From the NCBI GenBank assembly GCA_041662065.1, contig JBAZTE010000004.1, forward strand, positions 197,620 through 261,619: a stretch of 64,000 bases of DNA, given 5' to 3'. The notes beneath the pieces are model-generated. The model did no database searches. It saw nothing but the letters and a program-made list of their open reading frames with translations, and had not been told where the DNA came from. Made by a program: the position numbers and the translations under genes. Shown piece after piece: positions 6,272 to 39,900 of the stretch (position 1 is its first letter; every line of letters starts with the position of its first letter). Source of the DNA: Bacteroidales bacterium (GTDB lineage Bacteria; Bacteroidota; Bacteroidia; Bacteroidales; UBA12481).

Positions 6272-6310
6272 ATCGACAGCAGTGTCATTCCCGCGAAAGC
6301 GGGAACCGCC
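6272..6310. repeat. GC hairpin repeat ATCGAyAG.AGTGTCATyCCCGCGAAAGCGGGrACCGCC (copy 1 of 3)
   Basis: Stem TCCCGC/GCGGGA. About 41 nt match the reverse complement of 14503-14540, and the core also occurs at 16686-16710. Abuts the yigZ stop codon. Confidence 0.65.
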
Positions 6311-6910
6311 TCACGCTGGCAGTATTTTAACCATTTCCACCCTTCCCAATTGCCCAACCAACCCCTCCGCCGCACCCTCTCTGACCTGAACCGTCATCTT
6401 GCAGTCGATCGCGAAATCCTGTGAAATGATTTCAGCTTTCGAATCCTTGATGAGGTGCATGACCTCATTCATGGCCGGGTACTGAAAGGCGATGGAAATG
6501 CGGGTATTGAATGTTTTTTCGATAATAATTGCGGTTTGCAGACTTTCCTTCGCTGCGGTTCGATAAGAGGTAATGAGACCGCCGACCCCAAGCAATATCC
6601 CCCCGAAATACCGGATCACCACGATCAGGACATTGGTGAGTTCATAAGATTGGATTTGTCCGAGTATGGGCTTTCCGGCCGAATTTGCCGGCTCCCCGTC
6701 ATCATTTACTCGGTAACATGTATCCCCCTTGCCGATACGGTATGCATAACAGTGATGCCGCGCATCGTGAAATTCCTTCCGCAAGGCAGCCAGAATATCC
6801 TTCACCTCGTCGACCGATTCCACCGGGTACGCCCGGGCAATAAACCGGCTGCCCTTTGATTTGTAAAGGCCGTCGGAGGGTTGTCGGATGGTTTTGTAGG
6901 TGTCGGACAT
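6311..6910 (-). CDS. YigZ/IMPACT (UPF0029) family protein
   Basis: 199 aa. KGSRFIA..HHCYAYRIG..DDGEP.. matches the IMPACT N-terminal domain pattern. Confidence 0.85.
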   Translation of the reverse strand: MSDTYKTIRQPSDGLYKSKGSRFIARAYPVESVDEVKDILAALRKEFHDARHHCYAYRIGKGDTCYRVNDDGEPANSAGKPILGQIQSYELTNVLIVVIRYFGGILLGVGGLITSYRTAAKESLQTAIIIEKTFNTRISIAFQYPAMNEVMHLIKDSKAEIISQDFAIDCKMTVQVREGAAEGLVGQLGRVEMVKILPA

Positions 6911-9145: not shown

Positions 9146-10410
9146 GTACAACTGATTTAACGGAAAGGGCTTACGCGATTGCCCGTGAGCAATATGCAAA
9201 GCTTGGGATCGATACCGATCAGGCGATCGCCCGGATGGATGAAGTGGTGGTTTCCCTGCATTGCTGGCAGGCCGATGATGTAGGCGGATTTGAAACGCCC
9301 GATGCCTCCCTTACAGGTGGTGGCATCCAGGCTACCGGCAATTATCCCGGAAAAGCCACTACCATTGAGGAAATGCGAAAGGACCTTGAAAAGGTATTAA
9401 CCTTGCTTCCAGGTAAGTACCGGCTGAGCCTGCACGCATCATACGGCGATTTCCAGAGCAAGCGGGTCGACCGCGACCAGATTGAACCGGCCCATTTTCA
9501 GTCGTGGATCGACTGGTGTAAAAAGATGGGCATCGGGATGGATTTTAACCCGACATTCTTTTCACACCCTAAGGCTGCAGCAGGATTCACTTTATCCTCC
9601 AAAGATGAGGGCATCCGTAAGTTTTGGGTGGAGCATCTGAAGCGATGCCGCAGGATAGCCGCCGAAATGGGAAAACAGGTGGGAACGCCTTGCGTGATGA
9701 ACATCTGGGTGCCAGATGGATCGAAGGATGTCCCCATCAACCGGAACGGACATCGCGCTTTGCTCAAACAATCGCTCGATGAGGCGCTGGCCATCGAATA
9801 TCCGAAAGAACACCTGAAAGATGCACTGGAGAGCAAGCTCTTCGGTATTGGCGCCGAATCGATGACCGTAGGATCCCATGAGTTTTACCTCGGATATGCC
9901 ATCACAAATAATAAATTGATTTGCCTTGATAACGGGCATTTTCACCCCACTGAGCAGGTTGGCGACAAAATCTCCTCCTGCCTGCTGTATGTCGATGAAC
10001 TCCTGCTCCACCTGACCCGTCCGGTCCGTTGGGATTCCGACCACGTGGTCACTCTTAACGAAGATATGCAGATGATTGTCTACGAGATTATTCGTAATAA
10101 CTTCCTCAACCGTGTCCACATCGGGCTCGACTTTTTCGATGCCTCGATCAACAGGCTTGGGGCGTACGTCATTGGCTCGAGAGCGACCAAAAAGGCCTTT
10201 ATGCAGGCATTCTTGGAGCCCACCGCAGATTTACTCGGGATGGAAGAAAAAGGCCAGAATTTCGAGCGCCTGGCGCTCCTCGAAGAACTGAAAACGAAGC
10301 CGTTCGGAGCCGTCTGGGACTATTATTGCCTGAAAGAAGGGGTGCCGGTAGCGGAGGATTATATTGATGAGGTACAAGCCTATGAAAAGGCCGTCCTTTC
10401 AAAACGATAA
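9142..10410 (+). CDS. rhaA: L-rhamnose isomerase
   Basis: From MSTTDL the protein is colinear with E. coli RhaA (HCWQ.DDV.GFE, TGGIQATGNYPGKA, HFHPTE, RPVRWDSDHVV, HIGLDFFDASINR). The ATGA overlaps the rhaT stop. I ignore the ORF-track extension from 9043. Confidence 0.92.
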   Translation: MSTTDLTERAYAIAREQYAKLGIDTDQAIARMDEVVVSLHCWQADDVGGFETPDASLTGGGIQATGNYPGKATTIEEMRKDLEKVLTLLPGKYRLSLHASYGDFQSKRVDRDQIEPAHFQSWIDWCKKMGIGMDFNPTFFSHPKAAAGFTLSSKDEGIRKFWVEHLKRCRRIAAEMGKQVGTPCVMNIWVPDGSKDVPINRNGHRALLKQSLDEALAIEYPKEHLKDALESKLFGIGAESMTVGSHEFYLGYAITNNKLICLDNGHFHPTEQVGDKISSCLLYVDELLLHLTRPVRWDSDHVVTLNEDMQMIVYEIIRNNFLNRVHIGLDFFDASINRLGAYVIGSRATKKAFMQAFLEPTADLLGMEEKGQNFERLALLEELKTKPFGAVWDYYCLKEGVPVAEDYIDEVQAYEKAVLSKR

Positions 10411-12456: not shown

Positions 12457-12665
12457 TCTAAACTATCATTTTTTTTCTACCCTGAATTTGGAAGTTTAAA
12501 TGATAACTATTATTTTCGTTTCCCGAAGTAGCAAAGCTTCGCAGGCGCCCAAACCTGCAACCAATATGACATTGGTGTTAATCATTAAACGTTGTTTGAA
12601 AAAATATTTCGACTAAAATGAGTAGAATTCCTACTCGTTTTATTATATATTTGCTACAAGAATCT

Positions 12666-13181
12666 ATGCTGACCTTATCGAAAACATATCACTGGTTTGC
12701 TCTTTACACCATGAGCCGGCAGGAGAAGGTGGTTCATTCCGACCTCACGGAGGACGGTTTTGAGTCGTATCTCCCCTTGCTGCGTACTAAACGGAAGTGG
12801 TCCGACCGACTGAAATGGATCGATGAGCCCATGTTCCGGGGGTATGTGTTTGTCAGGGTCAGCAATAAGGAATACTACAAGATCCTGCAGCACCGTGCCG
12901 TACTGAAGTACATTGCCTTCGGCGGCAAGCCCAGTGTAATCCCCGATCATCATATGGAGGCCCTTATGCGGGCATTGAGCGAAAACCTGGATTTCGAGAT
13001 CACCAGCGACCGTTTTAAGCCGGGGCAGGTCGTTTTAGTTACTGCGGGACCCATGTGCGGCTGCAGTGGCGAGATCTTGAAGTACTCAGGTAAAAAGCGG
13101 CTTCTGGTACGGATCGGCGATATCGGATATTCGATGATGGTGGAGATGCCGGCGGGGTGTTTGGAGACTGTGAGACTATGA
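12666..13181 (+). CDS. UpxY-family (NusG-like) transcription antiterminator
   Basis: WFALYT..REK.V...L...G.E.YLPL......WSDR.K....P.F.GYVFV plus a C-terminal KOW-like GQVVLVTAGPMCG. The ORF track starts at 12618, but the Met at 12666 fits family length better. Confidence 0.85.
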   Translation: MLTLSKTYHWFALYTMSRQEKVVHSDLTEDGFESYLPLLRTKRKWSDRLKWIDEPMFRGYVFVRVSNKEYYKILQHRAVLKYIAFGGKPSVIPDHHMEALMRALSENLDFEITSDRFKPGQVVLVTAGPMCGCSGEILKYSGKKRLLVRIGDIGYSMMVEMPAGCLETVRL

Positions 13182-14240: not shown

Positions 14241-15488
14241 TTGGACTACCAGCCCATCATCGATTTCATTAAGTCCCTCTATTCGGATAAGCCTGTTATC
14301 GCCTTGCATGAGCCGTCATTTTCCGGCAACGAGAAAAAGTATATGGCCGAGTGCATTGATAGCACCTATGTTTCGTCGGTGGGGCCGTTTGTGGGGAGAT
14401 TTGAAGAGGCGGTGGCGAAGTTTGTAGGGCAGGGTAGAGGTCCCGCCGCAAGCCTCAGTGCGGAGGGGGGGGGTCCTCGCGCGGGCCTCGGTGCTAAGGA
14501 GGGCGGTCCCCGCTTTCGCGGGGATGACACTTCTATCGATGTAAAGGCGGTAGCGTGCGTGAATGGTACGGCAGCATTGCATTTGGCGCTTATGGTAGCG
14601 GGAGTGAAGGCCGGTGATGAGGTGATCACACAACCGCTAAGCTTTATTGCAACCGCCAATCCGATAGTTTATTTAGGAGCCAAACCCATTTTCATTGACG
14701 TTGACTCCGATACTTTGGGAATGAGCCCCATCGCATTACGTGCTTTTCTTGAATCCCGTTTCGGTCGTGAAGCGAAACACGTGAAGCGCGGCGCTAAGCG
14801 CATAGCAGCATGTGTGCCAATGCACACCTTTGGTAACCCATGCCGGATAGATGAAATTGTGGAGGTATGCAACGAATACGGTATTCCAGTTATTGAGGAT
14901 GCGGCAGAAAGCATAGGAAGCTATTATAAAGGACAACACACTGGCACTTTCGGCCTAATGGGCGTATTGAGCTTTAACGGCAACAAAACCATCACCACGG
15001 GCGGGGGAGGGATGATCGTGACGCGTGACGCGAAACTCGTGACGCGGTTAAAACACCTCTCTACGCAGGCCAAAATACCCCATCCGTGGGAATTTGCGCA
15101 CGATGCGATCGGATATAATTATCGTCTGCCTAATATAAACGCGGCCCTTGGACTGGCACAGATGGAAACCATCGAAAGCAAACTCGAATCGAAGCGTTTG
15201 TTGGCAAAAAAATATGCTGATTTCTTTGCTGAAATGGGAATCCCAACCATTCAGGAAATTCCGGGAGTCCGATCGAATTTCTGGCTCAACGGGATGTTCC
15301 TCGAAAACAGTCAACAGCGCAATGAGTTTCTGCAATTAGCTGTCAGCCAGAATGTCCATTGCCGGCCGACCTGGGAACTTCTGCCGACACTGGAGATGTA
15401 CAAGCAATATCAATGCGAGGACATCACAAACGCCAAACTCATAAGCGATACATTGGTCAATATACCCAGCTCTCCTGTTTTTGTTTAA
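14241..15488 (+). CDS. DegT/DnrJ/EryC1/StrS (LegC-like) sugar aminotransferase carrying a 37-codon in-frame repeat insertion
   Basis: LHEPSFSGNEKKYMAECIDSTYVSSVGPFV..FE, NGTAALHLAL, SFNGNKTITTGGGGM. TTG start. The insertion is at 14430-14540. Confidence 0.85.
   Translation: MDYQPIIDFIKSLYSDKPVIALHEPSFSGNEKKYMAECIDSTYVSSVGPFVGRFEEAVAKFVGQGRGPAASLSAEGGGPRAGLGAKEGGPRFRGDDTSIDVKAVACVNGTAALHLALMVAGVKAGDEVITQPLSFIATANPIVYLGAKPIFIDVDSDTLGMSPIALRAFLESRFGREAKHVKRGAKRIAACVPMHTFGNPCRIDEIVEVCNEYGIPVIEDAAESIGSYYKGQHTGTFGLMGVLSFNGNKTITTGGGGMIVTRDAKLVTRLKHLSTQAKIPHPWEFAHDAIGYNYRLPNINAALGLAQMETIESKLESKRLLAKKYADFFAEMGIPTIQEIPGVRSNFWLNGMFLENSQQRNEFLQLAVSQNVHCRPTWELLPTLEMYKQYQCEDITNAKLISDTLVNIPSSPVFV
14430..14540 (+). 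repeat. 111-nt GC-rich repeat block (three GGTCC.CGC-type units) inside the aminotransferase CDS
   Basis: Read as QGRGPAASLSAEGGGPRAGLGAKEGGPRFRGDDTSID. The last unit GGTCCCCGCTTTCGCGGGGATGACACTTCTATCGAT is the reverse complement of the intergenic repeat at 6272-6310. Confidence 0.75.
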
Positions 15489-15543
15489 TTAAATACTGCA
15501 GCACAAACATAATGTTTCTCAAGCATAATTATTATATTTGCTG

Positions 15544-16708
15544 ATGGACTTTGTAAACCGGTCAGTTGAACTTGATCTGCTTAGATCTGCACTGAAGCGC
15601 GAAAATCGACAATTGGTCATCGTGATGGGGCGTCGAAGAATCGGAAAATCCAGGCTGATACGGGAGGTTTTGCGATCAGACGATATATATATGCTTGCAG
15701 ATCAAAGTGATGCTACAATTCAACGAAGCTATTTGGCTTCTGCAGTTGCACCGGTAATACCAGGCTTTAATGAGGTGGTTTACCCAACCTGGGATAGTCT
15801 CCTAAGCCAGTTAAACCGAAGATGCAAAAAGGGAACGCTGATCTGTCTGGATGAATTCCCGTACCTGGTTAAAAGCGCCCCCGAATTGCCCAGTATAATA
15901 CAGCGGCTGACTGATAATCGCGAAGAACTGAATTTTCACCTGATTCTATGCGGCTCTTCTCAACAAATGATGAGCAAATCCGCTGGGTGTTTTGCATGAA
16001 GAGCCGACTCGTCTGTTTCTTGATGATTTGCGCACTACTATTCAGGCCGATTCCCTTCTGAGCGTGATCGGGAATGGTTGCCACCGCCTGTCAGAGATTG
16101 CCGCAAGATTGCAAAAGCCGGCCACCCATCTGAATCACCCTCTGAATACATTAATCGAACTGGGATTTGTCAGACGCGATATTCCATACGGCGAATCAAT
16201 CCGGTCTACCAAGCGCACTTTATACCGCATTTCCGATCCCTTCCTGCGGTTCTATTTCAGGTATGTGTCGCCCAACCGGTCTTTGCTGGTTCTTGATCAT
16301 ACTGGTGCCGTCAATCAGCAGATCAGATCTGGCTTTGCTCATTTTACCGCATCTCAGTGGGAGCAGATTTGCCGCGAGTCCATTCACGGGATCTACCCGG
16401 ATATTTCATGGCTGCCGGCTCAATCCTGGTGGGGAAACGACCGAAACAGCAAACCTCTGGAATTTGATCTGGTCAGCGAAACCGCCGATCGAAAAACCAT
16501 GCTGATCGGAGAATGCAAATGGAGCGATAAGATCAATCCAGAAGCGGTACTCACTGAATTGAAAGAAAAGACCAGCCGACTCCACTGGCTCGAGGGCCGT
16601 AATATACAATATGTATTGTTCACCAAATACCGGCATCCTGGCCCTCCGGAATTGAAAATTGTTAGTGCTGAGGAGGTGGTGAAGTGGTCCCCGCTTTCGC
16701 GGGGATGA
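15544..16708 (+). pseudogene. AAA ATPase (Arch_ATPase type) with DUF234 C-terminus, disrupted near 15990
   Basis: The Walker A GRRRIGKS is in ORF 15538-15999. The wHTH/DUF234-like part (LYRISDPFLRFYFRYV..ECKWS) is in ORF 15992-16708 in another frame. TATATTTG lies at 15533-15540. Confidence 0.65.
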
Positions 16709-16710
16709 CA
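16686..16710 (+). repeat. GC hairpin repeat GGTCCCCGCTTTCGCGGGGATGACA (copy 3)
   Basis: Supplies the last codons (WSPLSRG) and the TGA stop of the ATPase ORF. Confidence 0.7.
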
Positions 16711-22426: not shown

Positions 22427-23536
22427 ATGACCGAACAACAGATACAACCAGTTATGGAAAACGAGGACGAAATAGACTTGCTTAAACTGGTCAAAACTAT
22501 TTGGAACGGACGTAAAACCCTTTTGATTTCACTTTTTGCCGGAACCATTCTGGGAGTCTTCATAGCAAGGTATTCACCTAAAGAATACACGGCTACGACA
22601 GTCATGGTGCCACAAACTGGCGCCAGAGGTCAGTCTCAACTGGGTGGATTGGCTGCATTGGCAGGTTTGAGCCTTAATAGTGAGCAAAGTTCAGAATTAT
22701 CCCCATTCATTTACCCCACCATTGTAAGGAGCATACCTTTCAAACTTGAATTGATGAATGCTCTAATCAAGTGCAGTGATTTTAAACAACCAGTTTCACT
22801 TTTTGACTATTACAGCAGAAAACGGAAACCGTCGATAATTGGTGCGGTAAAAAAATATACCATCGGACTTCCTGGTGTTATTATCGGTGCTTTCAAAAGA
22901 AAACAAAAGGAATTGGTACTCCCAAATGTTTCATCTAATGACCTCATTCATCTTACCGGAGCTCAAAATGCTGTAAAGAATGCGTTGGATGGAGCTATTT
23001 CATTGGAGATAAGTTCAAAGCAAGGTTTGATTACACTTAATGTTCGAATGGCTGAAGCTTTGGCCGCAGCTCAAGTTGCGCAAATAGCACAAAGTTTGCT
23101 TCAACGTTACATCACCGAATTCAGGATAAAAAAGGCCCAAGCCGACCTTGATTTCATTCAGGAGCGTTACATAGTAGCCAAGGCCGAAGCAGAAAAATAC
23201 CAAGTCAATGTGGCGCTAAATACAGACCGTTCTAAGAATTTTACCAGCAGTTTGCCCCAGGTTGAAAACGCCAGAACCCTAACCTTGTACTCTATTGCCA
23301 GCAGTGTTTTCCAGGATTTGGCAAGACAACTCGAGCAAGCCAAAATTCAGGTTAAAAAAGACACACCCGTGTTTACTATCATTGAACCGGTTAGCATACC
23401 GATTACGACATCCAAACCACAAAAAGTCAAGATAATATCGATCTGGGTATTTTTAGGTGGTATGGTCGGTCTGGGATGGATTTTCGGAAAGCATTATCTT
23501 CCTGGCTTGCGAAAAAAATGGTCAGAAGTTGAATAA
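22427..23536 (+). CDS. Wzz-type chain-length determinant protein without a kinase domain (copy 1)
   Basis: 369 aa with N- and C-terminal TM helices, a coiled-coil middle and a PxxP-like C-terminus (EPVSIPITTSKP). Confidence 0.8.
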   Translation: MTEQQIQPVMENEDEIDLLKLVKTIWNGRKTLLISLFAGTILGVFIARYSPKEYTATTVMVPQTGARGQSQLGGLAALAGLSLNSEQSSELSPFIYPTIVRSIPFKLELMNALIKCSDFKQPVSLFDYYSRKRKPSIIGAVKKYTIGLPGVIIGAFKRKQKELVLPNVSSNDLIHLTGAQNAVKNALDGAISLEISSKQGLITLNVRMAEALAAAQVAQIAQSLLQRYITEFRIKKAQADLDFIQERYIVAKAEAEKYQVNVALNTDRSKNFTSSLPQVENARTLTLYSIASSVFQDLARQLEQAKIQVKKDTPVFTIIEPVSIPITTSKPQKVKIISIWVFLGGMVGLGWIFGKHYLPGLRKKWSEVE

Positions 23537-23573
23537 CTTGCAACTTGCAACCTGCAACCTGCAACCTGCAACA
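23537..23573 (+). repeat. GCAACCN heptamer array (about 5 units)
   Basis: CTTGCAA CTTGCAA CCTGCAA CCTGCAA CCTGCAA starts on the base after the wzz stop. Confidence 0.85.
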
Positions 23574-25936: not shown

Positions 25937-25952
25937 GGAAGAGGGGGAGGAT

Positions 25953-26036
25953 GCGGGTTGCTGGTTGCTGGTTGCTGGTTGCTGGTTGCTGGTTGCAAGT
26001 TGCTGGTTGCAAGTTGCGGGTTGCTGGTTGTGGGTT
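25953..26036 (-). repeat. GCAACCN heptamer array, complement orientation (about 12 units)
   Basis: GCGGGTTGCTGGTTGCTGG...GTTGTGGGTT. Ends at the stop codon of the four-helix-bundle gene. Confidence 0.9.
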
Positions 26037-26413: not shown

Positions 26414-26458
26414 AACCTGCAACCAGCAACCAGCAACCAGCAACCCGCAACCAGCAAC
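26414..26458 (+). repeat. GCAACCN heptamer array (about 6.5 units)
   Basis: AACCTGCAACCAGCAACCAGCAACCAGCAACCCGCAACCAGCAAC, inverted relative to 25953-26036. Confidence 0.9.
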
Positions 26459-28836: not shown

Positions 28837-28890
28837 GGGTTGCGGGTTGCAAGTTGCTGGTTGCAAGTTGCTGGTTGCTGGTTGCTGGTT
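28837..28890 (-). repeat. GCAACCN heptamer array, complement orientation (about 8 units)
   Basis: GGGTTGCGGGTTGCAAGTTGCTGGTTGCAAGTTGCTGGTTGCTGGTTGCTGGTT, starting 4 nt after the wzx stop. Confidence 0.9.
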
Positions 28891-30269: not shown

Positions 30270-31624
30270 AGAGACTGAAAGTACTGGTTTCAGCCCATGA
30301 ATTATCGCCATACCAGGGCTCCGAATGTGCAGTCGGGTGGAACCTGGTTACCCGGATAGCCCGTTATCACGACGTTACAGTTCTGTATGCGCGTGGCAGC
30401 CAGTTTTTCCCGGATGCTTACGAAACGGCCATCAGGAATTATTATACAGAGAACAAAAACGAGTTTAACATAAAATTTATTGCAGTTCCGCAACCCGATA
30501 CCACACTCTGGCTGGCAGCGATAAACAAGCGGATATCCAGGAACAGCTCCAGTATCGGCGTACCGTTTCTCTACTTCATCGGTTACCGGCTGTGGCAAAA
30601 AAGCGCCTACCGCATGGCCAAAACACAGGAACCATTTGACATCATCCATCATTTAACGTCCGTAACATTCAGAGAACCGGGTTATTTGTGGAGATTGCCA
30701 GTGCCCTTCGTATGGGGTCCAACGGGTGGAACCACAAATATTCCTATTCGTTTTTATCCGTTTATTGGGATCCGTGCTGCCAGTCATGAAGCTTTCCGTG
30801 CGATAACCAACCGACTGACACTTTGGTTCAGTTACAAGATTAGCCGGGCGATGAAAAAAAGCTCGCTGATCTACGCTTTTTCAGCGGAGGATCAGGCCTT
30901 GTTTCAAAGGAGGATGGTGAAGAGGGTGGAGGTGATGCTGGAGACCGGATGCGGGGAGGATGATGCAAGTTCCAATCAACCAGCAACCAGCAACCAGCAA
31001 CCTGCAACTTCCAATCATCTCCGCGTCCTCTGGTGCGGACGGTTGGTCAACTCTAAAGCGCTGGATATTTTACTTAAGGCCCTGGCAGGAGATCAGGATT
31101 TGATGAATCGGGTAAAGCTCACTATTGTGGGCGACGGTCCTTTGCGCAGTAAGTATGAAAAGCTGATCAAAAAGCTCTTCCCTCCAACCTGTAACCCGCA
31201 ACCTGCAACAAATATCTCTTTCACCGGCTGGCTCCCAAGGGATCAGGTAGTCCGCTGCATGAGGCAATCCGATGTGCTGGTCCATACCAGTTATCGGGAG
31301 GGTACCTCACACGTGATCCTTGAGGCACTATCTGCCGGCTTACCGGTAATCTGTCACGACATCAGTGGCATTTCCATCGCTGTGACCGGGGAATGCGGAA
31401 TCAAGGTTCCTTTAGTATCCTATAAAAAGAGCGTTCTCGGTTTCCGCGACGCGATTAGGGTTGCTAGTTGCAAGTTGCAAGATGCAAGTTGCTCCACACA
31501 AACTGCAACCGGCAACCTGCAACCTGCAACAAATCTCCGCTCGGGTGCCCTGAACAGGGCAAAAGAACTCTCCTGGGACTCGCTGGCCGAACGCATCTCC
31601 ACCGCTTATAATGATCTGCAATGA
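30266..31624 (+). CDS. GT4-family glycosyltransferase carrying three in-frame heptamer arrays
   Basis: GT-B layout. C-terminal domain ..VLWCGRLVNSKALDILLKAL.., ..SYREGTSHVILEALSAGLPVICHD.. (E-x7-E region). Confidence 0.8.
   Translation: MKRLKVLVSAHELSPYQGSECAVGWNLVTRIARYHDVTVLYARGSQFFPDAYETAIRNYYTENKNEFNIKFIAVPQPDTTLWLAAINKRISRNSSSIGVPFLYFIGYRLWQKSAYRMAKTQEPFDIIHHLTSVTFREPGYLWRLPVPFVWGPTGGTTNIPIRFYPFIGIRAASHEAFRAITNRLTLWFSYKISRAMKKSSLIYAFSAEDQALFQRRMVKRVEVMLETGCGEDDASSNQPATSNQQPATSNHLRVLWCGRLVNSKALDILLKALAGDQDLMNRVKLTIVGDGPLRSKYEKLIKKLFPPTCNPQPATNISFTGWLPRDQVVRCMRQSDVLVHTSYREGTSHVILEALSAGLPVICHDISGISIAVTGECGIKVPLVSYKKSVLGFRDAIRVASCKLQDASCSTQTATGNLQPATNLRSGALNRAKELSWDSLAERISTAYNDLQ
30969..31016 (+). 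repeat. GCAACCN array flanked by the 9-nt direct repeat TTCCAATCA, inside GT4 gene 1
   Basis: TTCCAATCA at 30969-30977 and 31008-31016. The 30 nt between is ACCAGCAACCAGCAACCAGCAACCTGCAAC. One repeat copy plus the array is 39 nt. Confidence 0.8.
31184..31210 (+). repeat. short GCAACCN array inside GT4 gene 1
   Basis: CCAACCTGTAACCCGCAACCTGCAACA is read as PTCNPQPAT. Confidence 0.7.
31458..31531. repeat. inverted pair of heptamer arrays (potential hairpin) inside GT4 gene 1
   Basis: GGGTTGCTAGTTGCAAGTTGCAAGATGCAAGTTGC (31458-31493) faces CTGCAACCGGCAACCTGCAACCTGCAACA (31503-31531). Read as VASCKLQDASCSTQTATGNLQPAT. Confidence 0.75.
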
Positions 31625-32871
31625 AGGTTCTCCTCATTAACAGGAATGACTTTGTGGATGGGGGAGCGGACCGGGTGTTTCTGAATACGTTTGATTTGTT
31701 GCAGGTTGCAGGTTGCGGGTTGCAGGTTGAGAAGTTTACAAGGGAAGATGTCGGGATGGAGACAATAGTTGATCCCCGCTCCTTATCAGTCTGGAAAAAG
31801 TTGCTGCATGTCAGAGACTATCTGTATAACCGTCGGGTGGCAGGTTGTCTGGATCGCAAAATCCAGGTGTTTCGTCCGGATGTGGCACATGTGCACCTGT
31901 TTTACGGGACCCTGTCAACCTCCATTTTAAAGGTTCTAAAAAAGAAAAAAGTACCGGTTGTCCTTACCGTACATGATTACCGGTTGCTTTGTCCGGCAAA
32001 TGCCATGCTCGACCGCCACGGACACATCTGTGAAAAGTGCTATAGAACAAAATATTATCAGTGTTTTATTAAACGGTGCTCCGGGGGAAATCTGTTTTTC
32101 AGCACAGTGATCATGCTGGAAGCCTACCTGAGAAAATGGATGTATAAACCAATAAAATTGATCGATCGCTTTATTTTCGTCAGTGATTTTAGCCGCAACA
32201 AGCATATTGAATTCGATCCGCGGTATATGGCAAAATCCATCCGGCTCTACAACATGGCCGACGAAAAACCTGGTATAATTCCAATAAAGGGTGACTATCT
32301 CCTCTTCTATGGAAGAATATCAAAGGAAAAAGGCCTGTTAACCCTGATCGAAGCAGTTAAAAACATTCAAGTAAAACTGATCATCGCCGGCCGCGGCCCT
32401 CAGGAAGAGGAAATAAAAAGACTGATAGACTATAAGACTATAAGACCCGCAACCAACAACCCGCAACCCGCAACCCGCAACCAGCAACCCGCAACCAGCA
32501 CCATCGACTTTGCCGGCTTCCTCTCAGGCAGCGAACTCGGGCAATTGATCCTTGGCTGCTCATTCGTGGTAGTTCCCTCGGAATGGTATGAAAACAATCC
32601 CATGACGGTGGTTGAGGCCTTCGCGCTGGGCAAGCCGGTCATCGGATCGCGGATCGGGGGGATACCCGAATTGGTAACTTCTGAAACCGGTTTTTTATTC
32701 GAACCCGGTAATCCTCTCTCACTGGCGGAGGCAATTGAAAAAGCTGTCAATCTATCCACAGAAAAATATAAAATGATGAGTGTTTCCTGCCGCGAATTTG
32801 CCAACATGAACTTTGACCGCAGGAAACATCTGGAACAACTTACCGGGATTTACCAACAAGTTGTGAATTGA
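31621..32871 (+). CDS. GT4-family glycosyltransferase carrying two in-frame heptamer arrays
   Basis: GGADRVF.., YGRISKEKG, PSEWYENNPMTVVEAFALGKPVIGSRIGGIPELV (E-x7-E). Confidence 0.85.
   Translation: MKVLLINRNDFVDGGADRVFLNTFDLLQVAGCGLQVEKFTREDVGMETIVDPRSLSVWKKLLHVRDYLYNRRVAGCLDRKIQVFRPDVAHVHLFYGTLSTSILKVLKKKKVPVVLTVHDYRLLCPANAMLDRHGHICEKCYRTKYYQCFIKRCSGGNLFFSTVIMLEAYLRKWMYKPIKLIDRFIFVSDFSRNKHIEFDPRYMAKSIRLYNMADEKPGIIPIKGDYLLFYGRISKEKGLLTLIEAVKNIQVKLIIAGRGPQEEEIKRLIDYKTIRPATNNPQPATRNQQPATSTIDFAGFLSGSELGQLILGCSFVVVPSEWYENNPMTVVEAFALGKPVIGSRIGGIPELVTSETGFLFEPGNPLSLAEAIEKAVNLSTEKYKMMSVSCREFANMNFDRRKHLEQLTGIYQQVVN
31696..31729 (-). repeat. GCAACCN array (complement orientation) inside GT4 gene 2
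   Basis: GTTGCAGGTTGCAGGTTGCGGGTTGCAGGTTG is read as LQVAGCGLQVE. Confidence 0.8.
32446..32502 (+). repeat. GCAACCN array (about 8 units) inside GT4 gene 2, preceded by a GACTATAA x2 octamer repeat
   Basis: CCGCAACCAACAACCCGCAACCCGCAACCCGCAACCAGCAACCCGCAACCAGCACC is read as RPATNNPQPATRNQQPATST. Confidence 0.85.
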
Positions 32872-35592: not shown

Positions 35593-36628
35593 TAAAAAGA
35601 AAATCCTGATCACCGGCGCCTATGGTTTCGTTGGCACTAATCTTTTGAAGGAGTTATGCAATGATTATCAATTAATTGCCCTTGACCTGGAATCCACCTC
35701 ACCCCCAACCCCCTCTCCCGCGCTCCCTTCGGTCACGGGAGAGGGGAAGGAGCCCTATTCAGACTTCTTCTCTTGGCAGGATCTGGATTCCATCCCCTGG
35801 GATACCCTCGACACCATCATCCACCTGGCTGGAAAGGCCCACGATACACGAAACATTGCTGATGAAAAGGAGTACTTTGAAGTCAATGTCGGGCTGACGG
35901 AAAAAATCGCTGAACGGTTTCAAAACTCGACTGCCCGTAAACTGATCTGTTTCAGCTCAGTAAAAGCAGTCGCCGATTCTTTTCCGGAAGGATTCTTAAC
36001 CGAAGAGACAACCCCGGCTCCAACCACGCCATACGGCCGATCCAAACTCGCCGCCGAGAAAATACTTCTGCAACCCGCAACCCGCAACCAACAACCTGCA
36101 ACCTGCAACCTGCAACCTGCAACCAGCAACCAGCAACCTGCAACCCGCAACCTCCTCTACCTCCTCCGCCCCTGCATGATCCACGGCCCCGGCAACAAAG
36201 GCAACCTGAACGAACTCGTCCGGTTTGTAAAAACAGGACTTCCCTGGCCGCTGGGCGCTTTTGAAAACCAGCGTTCCTTCACTTCAATTGCCAATTTGGT
36301 TTTTGTAATCAGGCAACTGATCGATAAGGAGATAGAGCCGGGCATTTACCAGGTGGCCGACGATGAACCGCTTTCAACGAATGAATTGATCAGGATGATT
36401 GCGTACTCGATGGGTAAAAGAGCGCGGATAATGAAACTTCCACCGGGTTTGATCAGGGGGCTGGCCCGATTGGGCGACCGTTTACCTTTTCCCCTGAACA
36501 GTGAACGTCTGCAGAAACTCACTGAATCCTACCGGGTCTCGAATCAGAAACTGAAAAATGCCCTCGGCATCGAACGAATGCCCGTAACCGCTGCCGAGGG
36601 GATGAGAAATACTCTTAAAACATTTTAG
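35576..36628 (+). CDS. NAD-dependent epimerase/dehydratase with two in-frame repeat insertions
   Basis: ILITGAYGFVGTNL, YGRSKLAAE (YxxxK), LRPCMIHGPG. Precedes the initiating sugar transferase. Confidence 0.8.
   Translation: MNQPSDKKKILITGAYGFVGTNLLKELCNDYQLIALDLESTSPPTPSPALPSVTGEGKEPYSDFFSWQDLDSIPWDTLDTIIHLAGKAHDTRNIADEKEYFEVNVGLTEKIAERFQNSTARKLICFSSVKAVADSFPEGFLTEETTPAPTTPYGRSKLAAEKILLQPATRNQQPATCNLQPATSNQQPATRNLLYLLRPCMIHGPGNKGNLNELVRFVKTGLPWPLGAFENQRSFTSIANLVFVIRQLIDKEIEPGIYQVADDEPLSTNELIRMIAYSMGKRARIMKLPPGLIRGLARLGDRLPFPLNSERLQKLTESYRVSNQKLKNALGIERMPVTAAEGMRNTLKTF
35710..35746 (+). repeat. GC hairpin CCCCTCTCCCG-N15-CGGGAGAGGGG inside the epimerase CDS
   Basis: Perfect 11-bp stem. Translated as part of ..TPSPALPSVTGEGKE.. 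Confidence 0.75.
36069..36152 (+). repeat. GCAACCN array, exactly 12 units (84 nt = 28 codons), inside the epimerase CDS
   Basis: Units counted by hand. Read as LQPATRNQQPATCNLQPATSNQQPATRN. Confidence 0.9.
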
Positions 36629-37315: not shown

Positions 37316-37460
37316 AGGTTGCGATTGTTATGATGGTTGTGATTGTTATGATAGTTATGATGGTTATGATGGTATGACCCAACCACAACAACCACAACAA
37401 CCATAACCACCATAACAACCATAACCACCATAACAACCATAACCACCACAACAACCACAA
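37316..37460. repeat. roughly 145-nt imperfect hairpin built from opposed 9-mer arrays (GTTATGATG-like / CAACCATAA-like)
   Basis: Left arm of about 7 units (37316-37378), right arm of about 9 units (37380-37460). Starts right after the TAG stop and ends 9 nt before the next GTG start. Confidence 0.8.
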
Positions 37461-37469
37461 CTTCTCTCC

Positions 37470-38904: not shown

Positions 38905-39900
38905 ATGATTCCGGACGTTTCGGTCATTATTGTCAATTTTAATACGGAGGATTACCTGGTTGAGTGCATCGGCTCGGTATTCGAACAGACCGGGAGCCGG
39001 CAAGTTGAAATTATCGTCGTGGATAATGCCTCCGACGTGGATCCCTCAGCAAAGATCACGGCTATTTATCCACACGTCAGGATGATCCGGAATACGATGA
39101 ACCGGGGATTCGGTGCCGCCAACAATACCGGCGCCGCTGAGGCAAGAGGGAAATTCCTGTTTTTTTTGAATCCGGATACCGTTCTGCTGAACGACAGTAT
39201 CGGGATCTTCCATCGATTTATGAATTCCGATAATAGAACTGACCGGGTGGTTGCTTGTGGGGGGAACCTGGTCAGATCGGACAAATCCCCGGCTCCTGCC
39301 TGGGGTAATCTTCCAACCCTCAGCTTGCTGTTCAGCGACTTGGGATTCAGAAAGTTATATAAAAATTATTATGAAAGCCGGTTGGCCACCAACGGTTACT
39401 GCAATTCTCAAGAAGACAGACCGGTACCATACATTGCCGGGGCCGACCTGTTCATACGGAAAGATATATTCCTCAAGCTAGGCGGATTCAGTGAACAGTA
39501 CTTCATGTATTTTGAGGATGCGGATCTCGGTTACCGGCTGAAACGGGAAGGATATAAAACATACCTGTTGCCGGAAGCTAAAATCCTTCATCATGAAAGT
39601 CTGAGTACCAGGAATGGCAACGGATTCAATTACCGGAAATATGAATTGCTGGAAAAAAGCAAATATCTCTATTTCAAAAAAAATCACGGTTTTATCGCGG
39701 CTCATGTCGCAAAAGATTTACAATTGATCTCTCTTCTTGTCTACGCTATTGCTCATCGTTTAGCTAACGTGCAACTTGCAACCAGCAACCCGCAACCAGC
39801 AACCCGCAACCCGCATCCTGTAACCCGCAACCCGCATCCTGTAACCAGCAACCCGCAACCCGCAACCCGCAACCTTTTGAAAATCACCCTCGATGCCTGA
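38905..39900 (+). CDS. GT2-family glycosyltransferase with a heptamer-array C-terminal tail
   Basis: VSVIIVNFNT, VVDNASDV, FLNPDT (DxD region), YFMYFEDADLGYR. Confidence 0.85.
   Translation: MIPDVSVIIVNFNTEDYLVECIGSVFEQTGSRQVEIIVVDNASDVDPSAKITAIYPHVRMIRNTMNRGFGAANNTGAAEARGKFLFFLNPDTVLLNDSIGIFHRFMNSDNRTDRVVACGGNLVRSDKSPAPAWGNLPTLSLLFSDLGFRKLYKNYYESRLATNGYCNSQEDRPVPYIAGADLFIRKDIFLKLGGFSEQYFMYFEDADLGYRLKREGYKTYLLPEAKILHHESLSTRNGNGFNYRKYELLEKSKYLYFKKNHGFIAAHVAKDLQLISLLVYAIAHRLANVQLATSNPQPATRNPHPVTRNPHPVTSNPQPATRNLLKITLDA
39770..39874 (+). repeat. GCAACCN array, exactly 15 units (105 nt = 35 codons), forming the GT2 C-terminus
   Basis: Units counted by hand, including the variants CGCATCC/TGTAACC. 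Read as (V)QLATSNPQPATRNPHPVTRNPHPVTSNPQPATRN. Confidence 0.9.

Follow-up and report, generated by a model that had tools for sequence, protein, structure and literature searches.

An in-frame CGTC-1-type repeat cluster, probably ancient and tolerated, in a LegC-family aminotransferase of an uncultured Bacteroidales bacterium

The legC gene of a Bacteroidales bacterium (UBA12481), which encodes a LegC-family sugar aminotransferase, contains a 111-nt GC-rich insert that keeps the reading frame open. We consider it likely that this insert is a tolerated, ancient intragenic cluster of CGTC-1-type repetitive extragenic palindromes (REPs), located in a permissive loop of the enzyme. The window, by which we mean the whole stretch of DNA analyzed, comprises 64,000 nt (GCA_041662065.1, contig JBAZTE010000004.1, positions 197,620-261,619, forward strand), and coordinates refer to it unless a related locus is named. 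The features on which the argument relies are as follows.

14241-15488, + strand: LegC-family (DegT/DnrJ/EryC1) sugar aminotransferase open reading frame (ORF), 415 aa, TTG start, the host gene
14430-14540, + strand: in-frame insert, 111 nt, 36-37 aa (QGRGPAASLSAEGGGPRAGLGAKEGGPRFRGDDTSID), Gly/Pro/Arg-rich, about 68% G+C against 45% for the window
14439-14471, + strand: unit A, 33 nt, starting GGTCC, with hairpin CCCGCCGCA/TGCGGAGGG (one mismatch, 8-nt loop)
14472-14504, + strand: unit B, 33 nt, starting GGTCC, GGTCCTCGC-GCGGGC followed by the 5'-flank motif CTCGGTGCTAAGGAGGGC
14505-14540, + strand: unit C, a CGTC-1-type REP hairpin (14505-14528) with the shared 3' flank ACACTTCTATCGAT, encoding GPRFRGDDTSID
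14465-14473, + strand: run of nine G (G9) at the A/B junction, within the coding sequence
6272-6310, - strand: intergenic copy, core at 6284-6307, GGTTCCCGCTTTCGCGGGAATGAC on the minus strand
16686-16710, + strand: exact 25-nt copy of the REP core (repeat family D17)

The insert and the dispersed repeat

The host ORF scores 497.8 bits against NCBIfam TIGR04181 (cut-off 420), which places it in the LegC family, and matches Pfam PF01041 (DegT_DnrJ_EryC1) at 7e-79. Its translation reads FEEAVAKFVG-QGRGPAASLSAEGGGPRAGLGAKEGGPRFRGDDTSID-VKAVACVNGTAALHLAL, so that FEEAVAKFVG stands on one side of the insert and VKAVACVNGT on the other. The solved homologues (7b0m, PglE 1o61/4ztc and GDP-perosamine synthase) align to query residues 22-62, their chain residues 6-46, and then from query 103 onward, their chain residue 51 onward. 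Because they keep only about four residues in this gap, 36-37 residues of the window protein are extra. Across an alignment of 117 family members, the stretch from E55 to N108 has 16 residues in 101 of them versus 52 here. The original prediction had described a GC-rich block inserted in frame into a LegC/DegT aminotransferase, in a motif stretch that is normally contiguous in the DegT family, and both statements are borne out: the ORF reads as quoted and the block is absent from the solved homologues.

Three units beginning with GGTCC start at 14439, 14472 and 14505, a spacing of 33 nt (11 codons). Units A and B are identical at 23 of 33 positions, as high a value as none of 20,000 shuffles gave; B and C share 15 and A and C share 11. 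Tandem Repeats Finder called no array on 14350-14620 because the units are too diverged, and the term tandem array therefore derives from the A-B identity test only. Unit C forms a strong hairpin, GGTCCCCGC-TTTC-GCGGGGATGAC (fold z-score about -3.0; stem TCCCCGC/GCGGGGA), which on the opposite strand reads TGTC-ATCCCCGC-GAAA-GCGGGGAC-CG. The hairpin of unit A is moderately stable (z-score -1.8), folding of unit B was not above that of shuffles, and the whole insert folded as RNA (z = -0.7) is not special for its composition. What had been predicted as three hairpin-repeat units therefore stands as to their number, but only C is a strong hairpin, A being modest and B none.

With up to three mismatches, units A and B have no match in the window beyond legC and are thus not dispersed within it. 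Units homologous to A do lie 5' of the REP in four of the orthologous loci described below (L081, L082, L083 and L002), and the 3' half of A is similar to the 5' flank of the dispersed element. Unit B looks like a degenerate REP without its loop, and its 5'-flank motif is found, as CAGTGCGAAGGAGGGC, 5' of an intergenic REP in locus L085 (9766-9781). The same motif, CAGTGCGAAGGAGGGC, from the 5' side of this L085 copy (9766-9815), also constitutes the 3' halves of units A and B. Because a motif of this type ends both units, the insert resembles a cluster of head-to-tail copies of a single, roughly 50-nt element, with both upstream hairpins decayed.

The 24-nt core of unit C, GGTCCCCGCTTTCGCGGGGATGAC (14505-14528, + strand), recurs exactly at 16686-16709 on the same strand and with two compensated mismatches at 6284-6307 on the minus strand, giving three copies in 64 kb where the chance expectation is 0. 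The last unit had been called the reverse complement of an intergenic repeat at 6272-6310, and this holds: similarity extends into both flanks over about 40 nt with four mismatches and one gap, and the flanks shared by the two copies are GAGG(G)CGG and, on the opposite side, ACACTNCTNTCGAT. The copy at 6284 begins 3 nt past the stop codon of a UPF0029 gene (6311-6910, - strand). Recurrence of the core at 16686-16710 was likewise found and is exact, but this copy is not intergenic; it forms the last eight codons (WSPLSRG) with the TGA stop of a DUF234 ORF (15992-16708). Orientation relative to the gene touched is the same in all three copies. The hairpin can be read through in five of its six frames, TGA being present only in the one used at 16686.

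CGTC-tagged REPs, including the family CGTC-1, have been described by Di Nocera, De Gregorio and Rocco (2013, BMC Genomics 14:522, PMC3733652). CGTC-1 is characterized there by a CGTC tag (with TGTC and CCTC accepted as variants), an 8-bp GC-rich stem with complementary A/T residues at its first and second positions, a 4-nt loop and a CCA tail; it equals Neisseria dRS3 and Rickettsia RPE-6 and is known from five phyla, including one member of the Bacteroidetes, Gramella forsetii (PMC3733652). Its copies are mostly intergenic, often near or overlapping ORF 3' ends, with head-to-head dimers predominating as a tendency and not a requirement, and for CGTC REPs neither a dedicated transposase nor an association with REP-associated tyrosine transposases (RAYTs) is known (PMC3733652). 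Intragenic in-frame REPs are documented as well, with clusters encoding 43-82 aa, and the REP-encoded peptides, Rickettsia conorii CGTC-1 elements among them, include DSRFRGND, VIPAKAGI and SFPRKRES (PMC3733652).

By the features tested, the element in legC mostly qualifies as a CGTC-1 REP. TGTCAT... is present on the tag strand in all window copies and all copies from related loci, and the three window copies share a 4-nt GAAA/TTTC loop. The stem, ATCCCCGC/GCGGGGAC, has seven Watson-Crick pairs, including T-A at the second position, with A.C (G.T on the other strand) at the first; the ...GGGAACC ending is also seen in many proteobacterial copies from our genome scan. The tail is CCA at 16686 and CCG at 14505 and 6284. 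Two of the window copies are associated with stop codons, one starting 3 nt downstream and the other overlapping, and the third is intragenic; the window peptide PRFRGDD and the peptides of related loci match REP-encoded peptides listed in PMC3733652. Head-to-head dimers were not found in the window, whose copies are singletons or head-to-tail units; a dimer is present in the related locus L061.

Among 185,579 species-representative genomes scanned, the exact 24-mer GGTYCCCGCTTTCGCGGGRATGAC was found in at least 120 genome stretches (L089-L208) from many phyla. The matches listed include Devosia, Sphingomonas, Sphingopyxis, Luteimonas and other Alpha-, Beta- and Gammaproteobacteria, and also Chloroflexi/Dehalococcoidia, Gemmatimonadota, Hydrogenedentota, Kapaibacterium, a Porphyromonadaceae metagenome-assembled genome (MAG) and a candidate phyla radiation (CPR) bacterium. 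Most of the listed matches are head-to-head dimers of the form GTCAT...ACCCAG-N(about 30)-CTGGGT...ATGAC. The same 24-mer occurs in 46 IMG/VR viral contigs (L209-L254), and in several proteobacterial and other loci, for example L129, L168 and L154, tandem half-sites (GGGRATGAC every 15-20 nt) follow the hairpin. A literature search for the literal sequence CCCGCGAAAGCGGG returned irrelevant papers only.

Other classes of element were considered and rejected. No direct repeat flanks the insert or the REP, and the hairpin itself is the only inverted repeat, which argues against a miniature inverted-repeat transposable element; neither hairpin end has the GTAG of GTAG REPs and REPINs. With 37 aa the segment is too short for an intein, it matches no Rfam family, and retention of an open frame through it in all orthologues, whatever its length, speaks against an intron or translational bypass. 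Rfam searches gave no family over the whole window at the gathering threshold, nor over 14300-14700 at E-values up to 10, and a promoter and terminator scan found nothing at the hairpin.

One loop across orthologous loci

The closest protein relatives, from Bacteroidales MAGs and metagenome contigs (69-80% identity), all have a longer loop at this site, exceeding the canonical length by 14-48 aa. DNA was obtained for ten close orthologous loci. An insert occupies the same loop in all ten, and in eight of them the hairpin has the same orientation and the same frame, so that every forward copy (8/8) is in frame.

Window: hairpin GGTCCCCGCTTTCGCGGGGATGAC; peptide PRFRGDD
L002: hairpin ...CGCCTTCGCG...; peptide PRLRGDD
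L003: peptide PRLRGDD
L087: stem partly degraded; peptide PRFHGDD
L081: stem degraded; peptide PRFREED
L082: hairpin GATCCCGACGTTCGTCGGGATGAC; peptide PDVRRDD
L085: hairpin GGTCCCGACTTTCGTCGGGATGAC; peptide PDFRRDD
L083 (near-identical L001): hairpin GGTCCCGGCCTTCGCCGGGATGAC; peptide PGLRRDD
L084: hairpin on the other strand, TGTCATTCCCGTGAAAGCGGGAACC; peptide HSRESGNP
L086, sister of L084: (CCGATAC)x4 in place of the hairpin
L088, outgroup: only five extra residues

In a neighbour-joining tree of the core, forward REPs are found on both main branches of the clade, with 100% bootstrap, and L084 and L086 are nested in a subclade with 99% support whose other members carry the forward REP. This distribution argues for an insertion that is ancestral to the clade and has been repeatedly remodelled since. 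We thus regard the insertion as old, predating the split of the closest-orthologue clade, and not as a recent event in this genome, and we take the inverted hairpin of L084 to be an independent insertion. Remodelling is also seen between L002 and L003: despite 88% identity, the insert is long and multi-unit in the former and a bare REP in the latter. The homologue alignment suggested as a check with the original prediction therefore finds the insert extra relative to the solved structures and shared by the closest-orthologue clade; the inserts of the clade are built from the same repeat, and a conserved insertion of other origin, which had been named as the contrary outcome, was not what we found.

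The hairpin is conserved as a nucleotide sequence and not as a peptide. Mean third-position identity between orthologues is 0.82 in the ten REP codons versus 0.38 at core synonymous sites, defined as identical residues from codon families of four or more. Stem cells are paired in 95% of cases, slid registers reaching 34-53%; at two stem pairs both partners have changed, three sequences having GC for CG and two AU for GC, and the observed covariation score was reached in none of 500 shuffles. Some of the stem variants have a counterpart in their own genome. In L083, GGTCCCGGCCTTCGCCGGGATGACA is the sequence of the legC copy and also of one lying about 4 kb downstream; in L085, GGTCCCGACTTTCGTCGGGATGACACTTCT is shared by the legC copy and a copy in another ORF, a third L085 copy having a CCCCGC stem. 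The rarer legC stem variants (CCCGGC/GCCGGG in L083, CCCGAC/GTCGGG in L085) are thus identical over at least 25 nt to a REP copy of the same locus, and L082, although not in the same subclade as L085, has the CCCGAC variant too. Because four coordinated substitutions are unlikely to have arisen twice independently, we infer that copies were overwritten by the REP subfamily active in the genome. Whether such overwriting, by gene conversion or by excision and re-insertion, took place we put at about even odds.

REPs occur elsewhere in these loci. The other L085 copy just mentioned (L085 is the complete genome OW818688.1) lies at 1832-1857, on the opposite strand and in frame, in a PNPOx-like ORF (1563-2024), where it encodes SVIPTKVGTS exactly at the end of the Pfam match; legC is thus not the only gene with an intragenic REP in this group. 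REP copies are also found just upstream of legC, at 9766-9850 in L085, between the UpxY-like gene and legC, and as a dimer at about 1075-1125 in L061, about 100 nt before the legC start. Taken together, these upstream copies suggest that the 5' region of the operon attracts the element repeatedly.

Among distant LegC homologues, long inserts are seen at two other sites (alignment columns 201-245 and 387-404). They follow the LE..N segment in P0051, P0080 and P0082 and AQ[ML]E[ML]L in P0026 and P0029, and P0004 has an extra RRRGSLVT. As judged from these alignments, the LegC family tolerates loop insertions at several places.

Host gene function and alternative explanations

Among the insert-bearing orthologues, dN/dS ranges from 0.046 to 0.139 over 361 ungapped core codons, values to be read with dS at or beyond saturation (0.63 to >2.7) and many pairs undefined under the Nei-Gojobori method (NG86); for the window and its closest relative, L083, dN/dS is 0.089 with dS 1.17. 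The core of legC is thus under strong purifying selection. All 62 columns invariant across the 117 homologues are kept in the window protein, including N108-G109-T110, D220 and K249, which we take to be residues in contact with pyridoxal phosphate. An AlphaFold2 model built with this alignment has a predicted local distance difference test score (pLDDT) of 89.1 and a predicted template modelling score of 0.88, and superimposes on GDP-perosamine synthase, PglE and 7b0m with template modelling scores of 0.85-0.88 (target-normalised) and root mean square deviations of 2.4-3.3 A. The sole segment with pLDDT below 50 is residues 68-98, modelled as a disordered coil between helix 49-62 and strand 102-106 with the canonical fold elsewhere, in agreement with an exposed loop, the point that structure prediction had been proposed to check. 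The insert loop, which connects helix 49-62 with the first beta-strand, lies about nine residues ahead of the N108-G109-T110 motif. In fold-type I aminotransferases, the N-terminal end of the first strand is directed away from the cofactor, which is bound at the C-terminal ends of the strands. We infer from the sequences and the model that the loop is translated and that enzyme activity is retained. The original prediction had left it undecided whether the protein tolerates the segment or is inactivated by it; the invariant residues, dN/dS and predicted fold strongly favour tolerance and speak against inactivation, and the idea of a dispersed repeat in frame in an otherwise intact enzyme is supported.

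These observations would fit the following course of events. A CGTC-1-type REP would have inserted in the helix-to-strand loop of legC in an ancestor of the Bacteroidales clade. Because five of the six frames are open, an in-frame copy in a permissive loop would be nearly neutral and survive selection. The loop may then have become a local hot spot for further units, a second, inverted REP and the heptamer repeats common in these genomes, and the insert would later have been remodelled through gain and loss of units, one replacement and one independent insertion in opposite orientation. Throughout, the segment would be translated as a disordered Gly/Pro/Arg-rich loop of a functional enzyme under purifying selection, with the hairpin staying recognisable through still belonging to the REP population of the genome.

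Several points weigh against this interpretation. Only three REP copies are present within 64 kb, they are singletons and not the head-to-head dimers typical of the family, and their stem is closed by A.C (G.T on the opposite strand) in place of a canonical A-T. Homogenisation is deduced from three genomes with two to three copies each, and the window is uninformative on it because the variant shared by its copies is also the commonest one. The copies at 16686 in the window and at about 9257 in L083 may also not be orthologous, as the flanks diverge at the element.

The most serious competitor, although we judge it unlikely, is that the hairpin in legC is a functional nucleic-acid element under its own selection and the protein loop merely a cost. 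It might act in the mRNA, as a structure that adjusts how the first biosynthetic gene behind the UpxY-like antiterminator is translated or how stable its message is, or in the DNA, as the target of a recombinase or of a DNA-binding protein. Persistence of the hairpin despite saturated synonymous sites, its compensatory stem changes, the drift of its peptide (PRFRGDD, PDVRRDD, PGLRRDD, PRFHGDD) and the REP copies just upstream of legC in L085 and L061 would all be expected of such an element. However, the forward hairpin is missing in two orthologues of the clade (L086 has none and that of L084 is inverted) and its stem is degraded in L081 and L087. Stem variants that match copies in the same genome can be explained by homogenisation without a local function, the site shows neither an Rfam family nor a terminator-like pattern, and the same element is found in unrelated contexts in many phyla. 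A broader proposal, that copies at fixed orthologous sites, the present one in an essential part of a coding sequence included, are actively kept identical to the genome-dominant REP or that the hairpin is a selected RNA or DNA element in the opening gene of an UpxY-controlled polysaccharide operon, strikes us as rather improbable, if somewhat less so. Its first form would call for a mechanism of copy correction or re-insertion specific to CGTC-type REPs. If either form were true, the locus would be a natural reporter for CGTC REP propagation.

The G9 run raises the possibility that slipped-strand mispairing makes legC a phase-variable (contingency) gene for surface polysaccharide. In Campylobacter, Neisseria and Haemophilus, glycan genes are switched by poly-G tracts, and G9 is the sole G or C homopolymer of at least 8 nt in the 64-kb window and its longest homopolymer of any base, in a gene of a polysaccharide locus. 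In the orthologues, however, runs at this site do not exceed G5, and records from three sources give the same in-frame sequence. Slipped-strand poly-G switching is not a known habit of the Bacteroidales, which mostly use invertible promoters, and we regard phase variation as very doubtful. Slightly less credible still is a pseudogene, inactivated by the insert with a stop codon still lacking. A 37-aa Gly/Pro/Arg-rich segment so close to the NGT motif might be thought damaging, and decay does occur in the locus, since the neighbouring ATPase_2/DUF234 gene is split into two ORFs; against this, the ORF is full-length with all family-invariant residues kept, dN/dS is low, the model is confident outside the loop, and the length changes of the insert have introduced neither a frameshift nor a stop codon in any of the ten orthologues. 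Selection on the amino-acid sequence, with the loop serving as an adaptive feature of the protein such as a linker, the RGD tripeptide or an interaction motif, is just as improbable as a pseudogene. The loop is occupied throughout the clade and R-G-D is encoded in the window, L002 and L003, with an altered form in L087, but its length and sequence vary freely, L084 encodes the opposite hairpin strand and L086 a heptamer-repeat peptide, conservation resides in third codon positions and base pairing and not in residues, and the segment is predicted to be disordered.

That the insert is an assembly chimera or sequencing artefact is scarcely credible. The source is a MAG, and assemblers can be misled by repeats. 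However, NCBI, JGI and ENA each have a record of the identical protein with the insert, in ENA on a separate contig of 14,918 bp; inserts at the same codon position are found in ten orthologues, which come from different samples and assemblers; and the insert is in frame with clean flanks. An assembly chimera, an outcome that would have spoken against the original prediction, is all but excluded by these separate records and orthologues from many samples.

Locus context and known systems

legC lies in a polysaccharide locus with the order UpxY-like NusG gene (12618-13181), DUF218 gene, legC, split ATPase_2/DUF234 gene and AlbA_2/HATPase_c_4 gene, followed downstream by two genes for Wza-like exporters, two for Wzz-like proteins and one for a flippase. 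The ORFs at 15538-15999 (ATPase_2/AAA N-terminal part) and 15992-16708 (DUF234 and helix-turn-helix C-terminal part) overlap by 8 nt in different frames and look like a frameshifted single gene. Two tRNA genes lie side by side on the minus strand (1966-2049 and 2072-2155) and are 81% identical over 85 nt (Rfam RF00005; repeat family D9). More than 12 arrays of a 7-nt tandem repeat (GCAACCN, complement GGTTGCN), with 4-14 copies each, are found throughout the polysaccharide locus between 23535 and 39874, several of them occupying short gaps that separate listed ORFs. Examples are given below.

23535-23572, 25952-26030, 26414-26458, 28838-28890, 30977-31008: 7-nt arrays
31460-31530, 31698-31729, 32445-32500, 36068-36153, 39771-39874: further 7-nt arrays

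Arrays of 9 and 18 nt lie at 37317-37461. Other 7-nt arrays are seen in the related loci, among them (CCGATAC)x4 in the legC loop of L086 and arrays 3' of the REP in L083.

What is new here is a comparative series in which, at one fixed intragenic site, the repeat is maintained at the nucleotide level and its stem variants are genome-specific. With it, the invasion of protein-coding genes by selfish DNA, for which Rickettsia is the best-known example, would extend to uncultured, free-living Bacteroidales and to a polysaccharide-locus sugar aminotransferase. The series is unusually clean, comprising a single loop in about a dozen orthologues with synonymous sites at saturation, where the repeat is kept as DNA while the peptide drifts, and it bears on how CGTC REPs move without a dedicated transposase and on the homogenisation of copies within a genome. 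Annotators and users of structure prediction would do well to expect REP-derived low-complexity loops in otherwise ordinary enzymes, and the helix-to-strand loop ahead of the NGT motif would be a permissive insertion site usable in the engineering of DegT-family enzymes.

The element resembles CGTC-1 REPs in its tag, 4-nt loop, in-frame intragenic copies and encoded peptides and, less strictly, in its GC-rich stem of about 8 bp, its short CCA-like tail and its 3'-end locations. It departs from the norm of that family in that the window copies are singletons or head-to-tail, in its A.C closing pair, and in extra conserved flanks (about 16 nt 5' and 12-14 nt 3') that are common to these Bacteroidales genomes. 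Both the host, an uncultured Bacteroidales, and the target, a LegC-family aminotransferase, lie outside the survey of PMC3733652. GTAG REPs and REPINs, which are mobilised by RAYTs, are likewise short extragenic palindromes, often dimeric and occasionally intragenic, but their defining GTAG tag is absent from the legC hairpin. Like Neisseria dRS3 and Neisseria intergenic mosaic elements (NIME), the element has an ATTCCC-N8-GGGAAT-type hairpin and forms clustered arrays (PMC3733652). Neisseria dRS3 flank RS elements in intergenic mosaics, and nothing of the kind was seen here. They are also integration targets for filamentous prophages, again without a parallel in the window.

The closest parallel is with Rickettsia palindromic elements (RPEs), of which R. 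felis has 728, 85 of them within ORFs (PMC1166351). As in those, a palindromic repeat appears to be tolerated in frame in a coding region at a structurally permissive site. The only link to RPEs is the equivalence of RPE-6 and CGTC-1 in PMC3733652 together with the matching encoded peptides. RPEs are a hallmark of an obligate intracellular alphaproteobacterium, and RPE-1 is longer (about 100-150 nt). Ogata et al. in 2000, and later work, are said to have found RPE-encoded segments on protein surfaces. In-frame, tolerated intragenic repeats have thus already been described for this REP family, and by analogy the behaviour of the repeat in legC appears to be the same as that of the Rickettsia RPEs.

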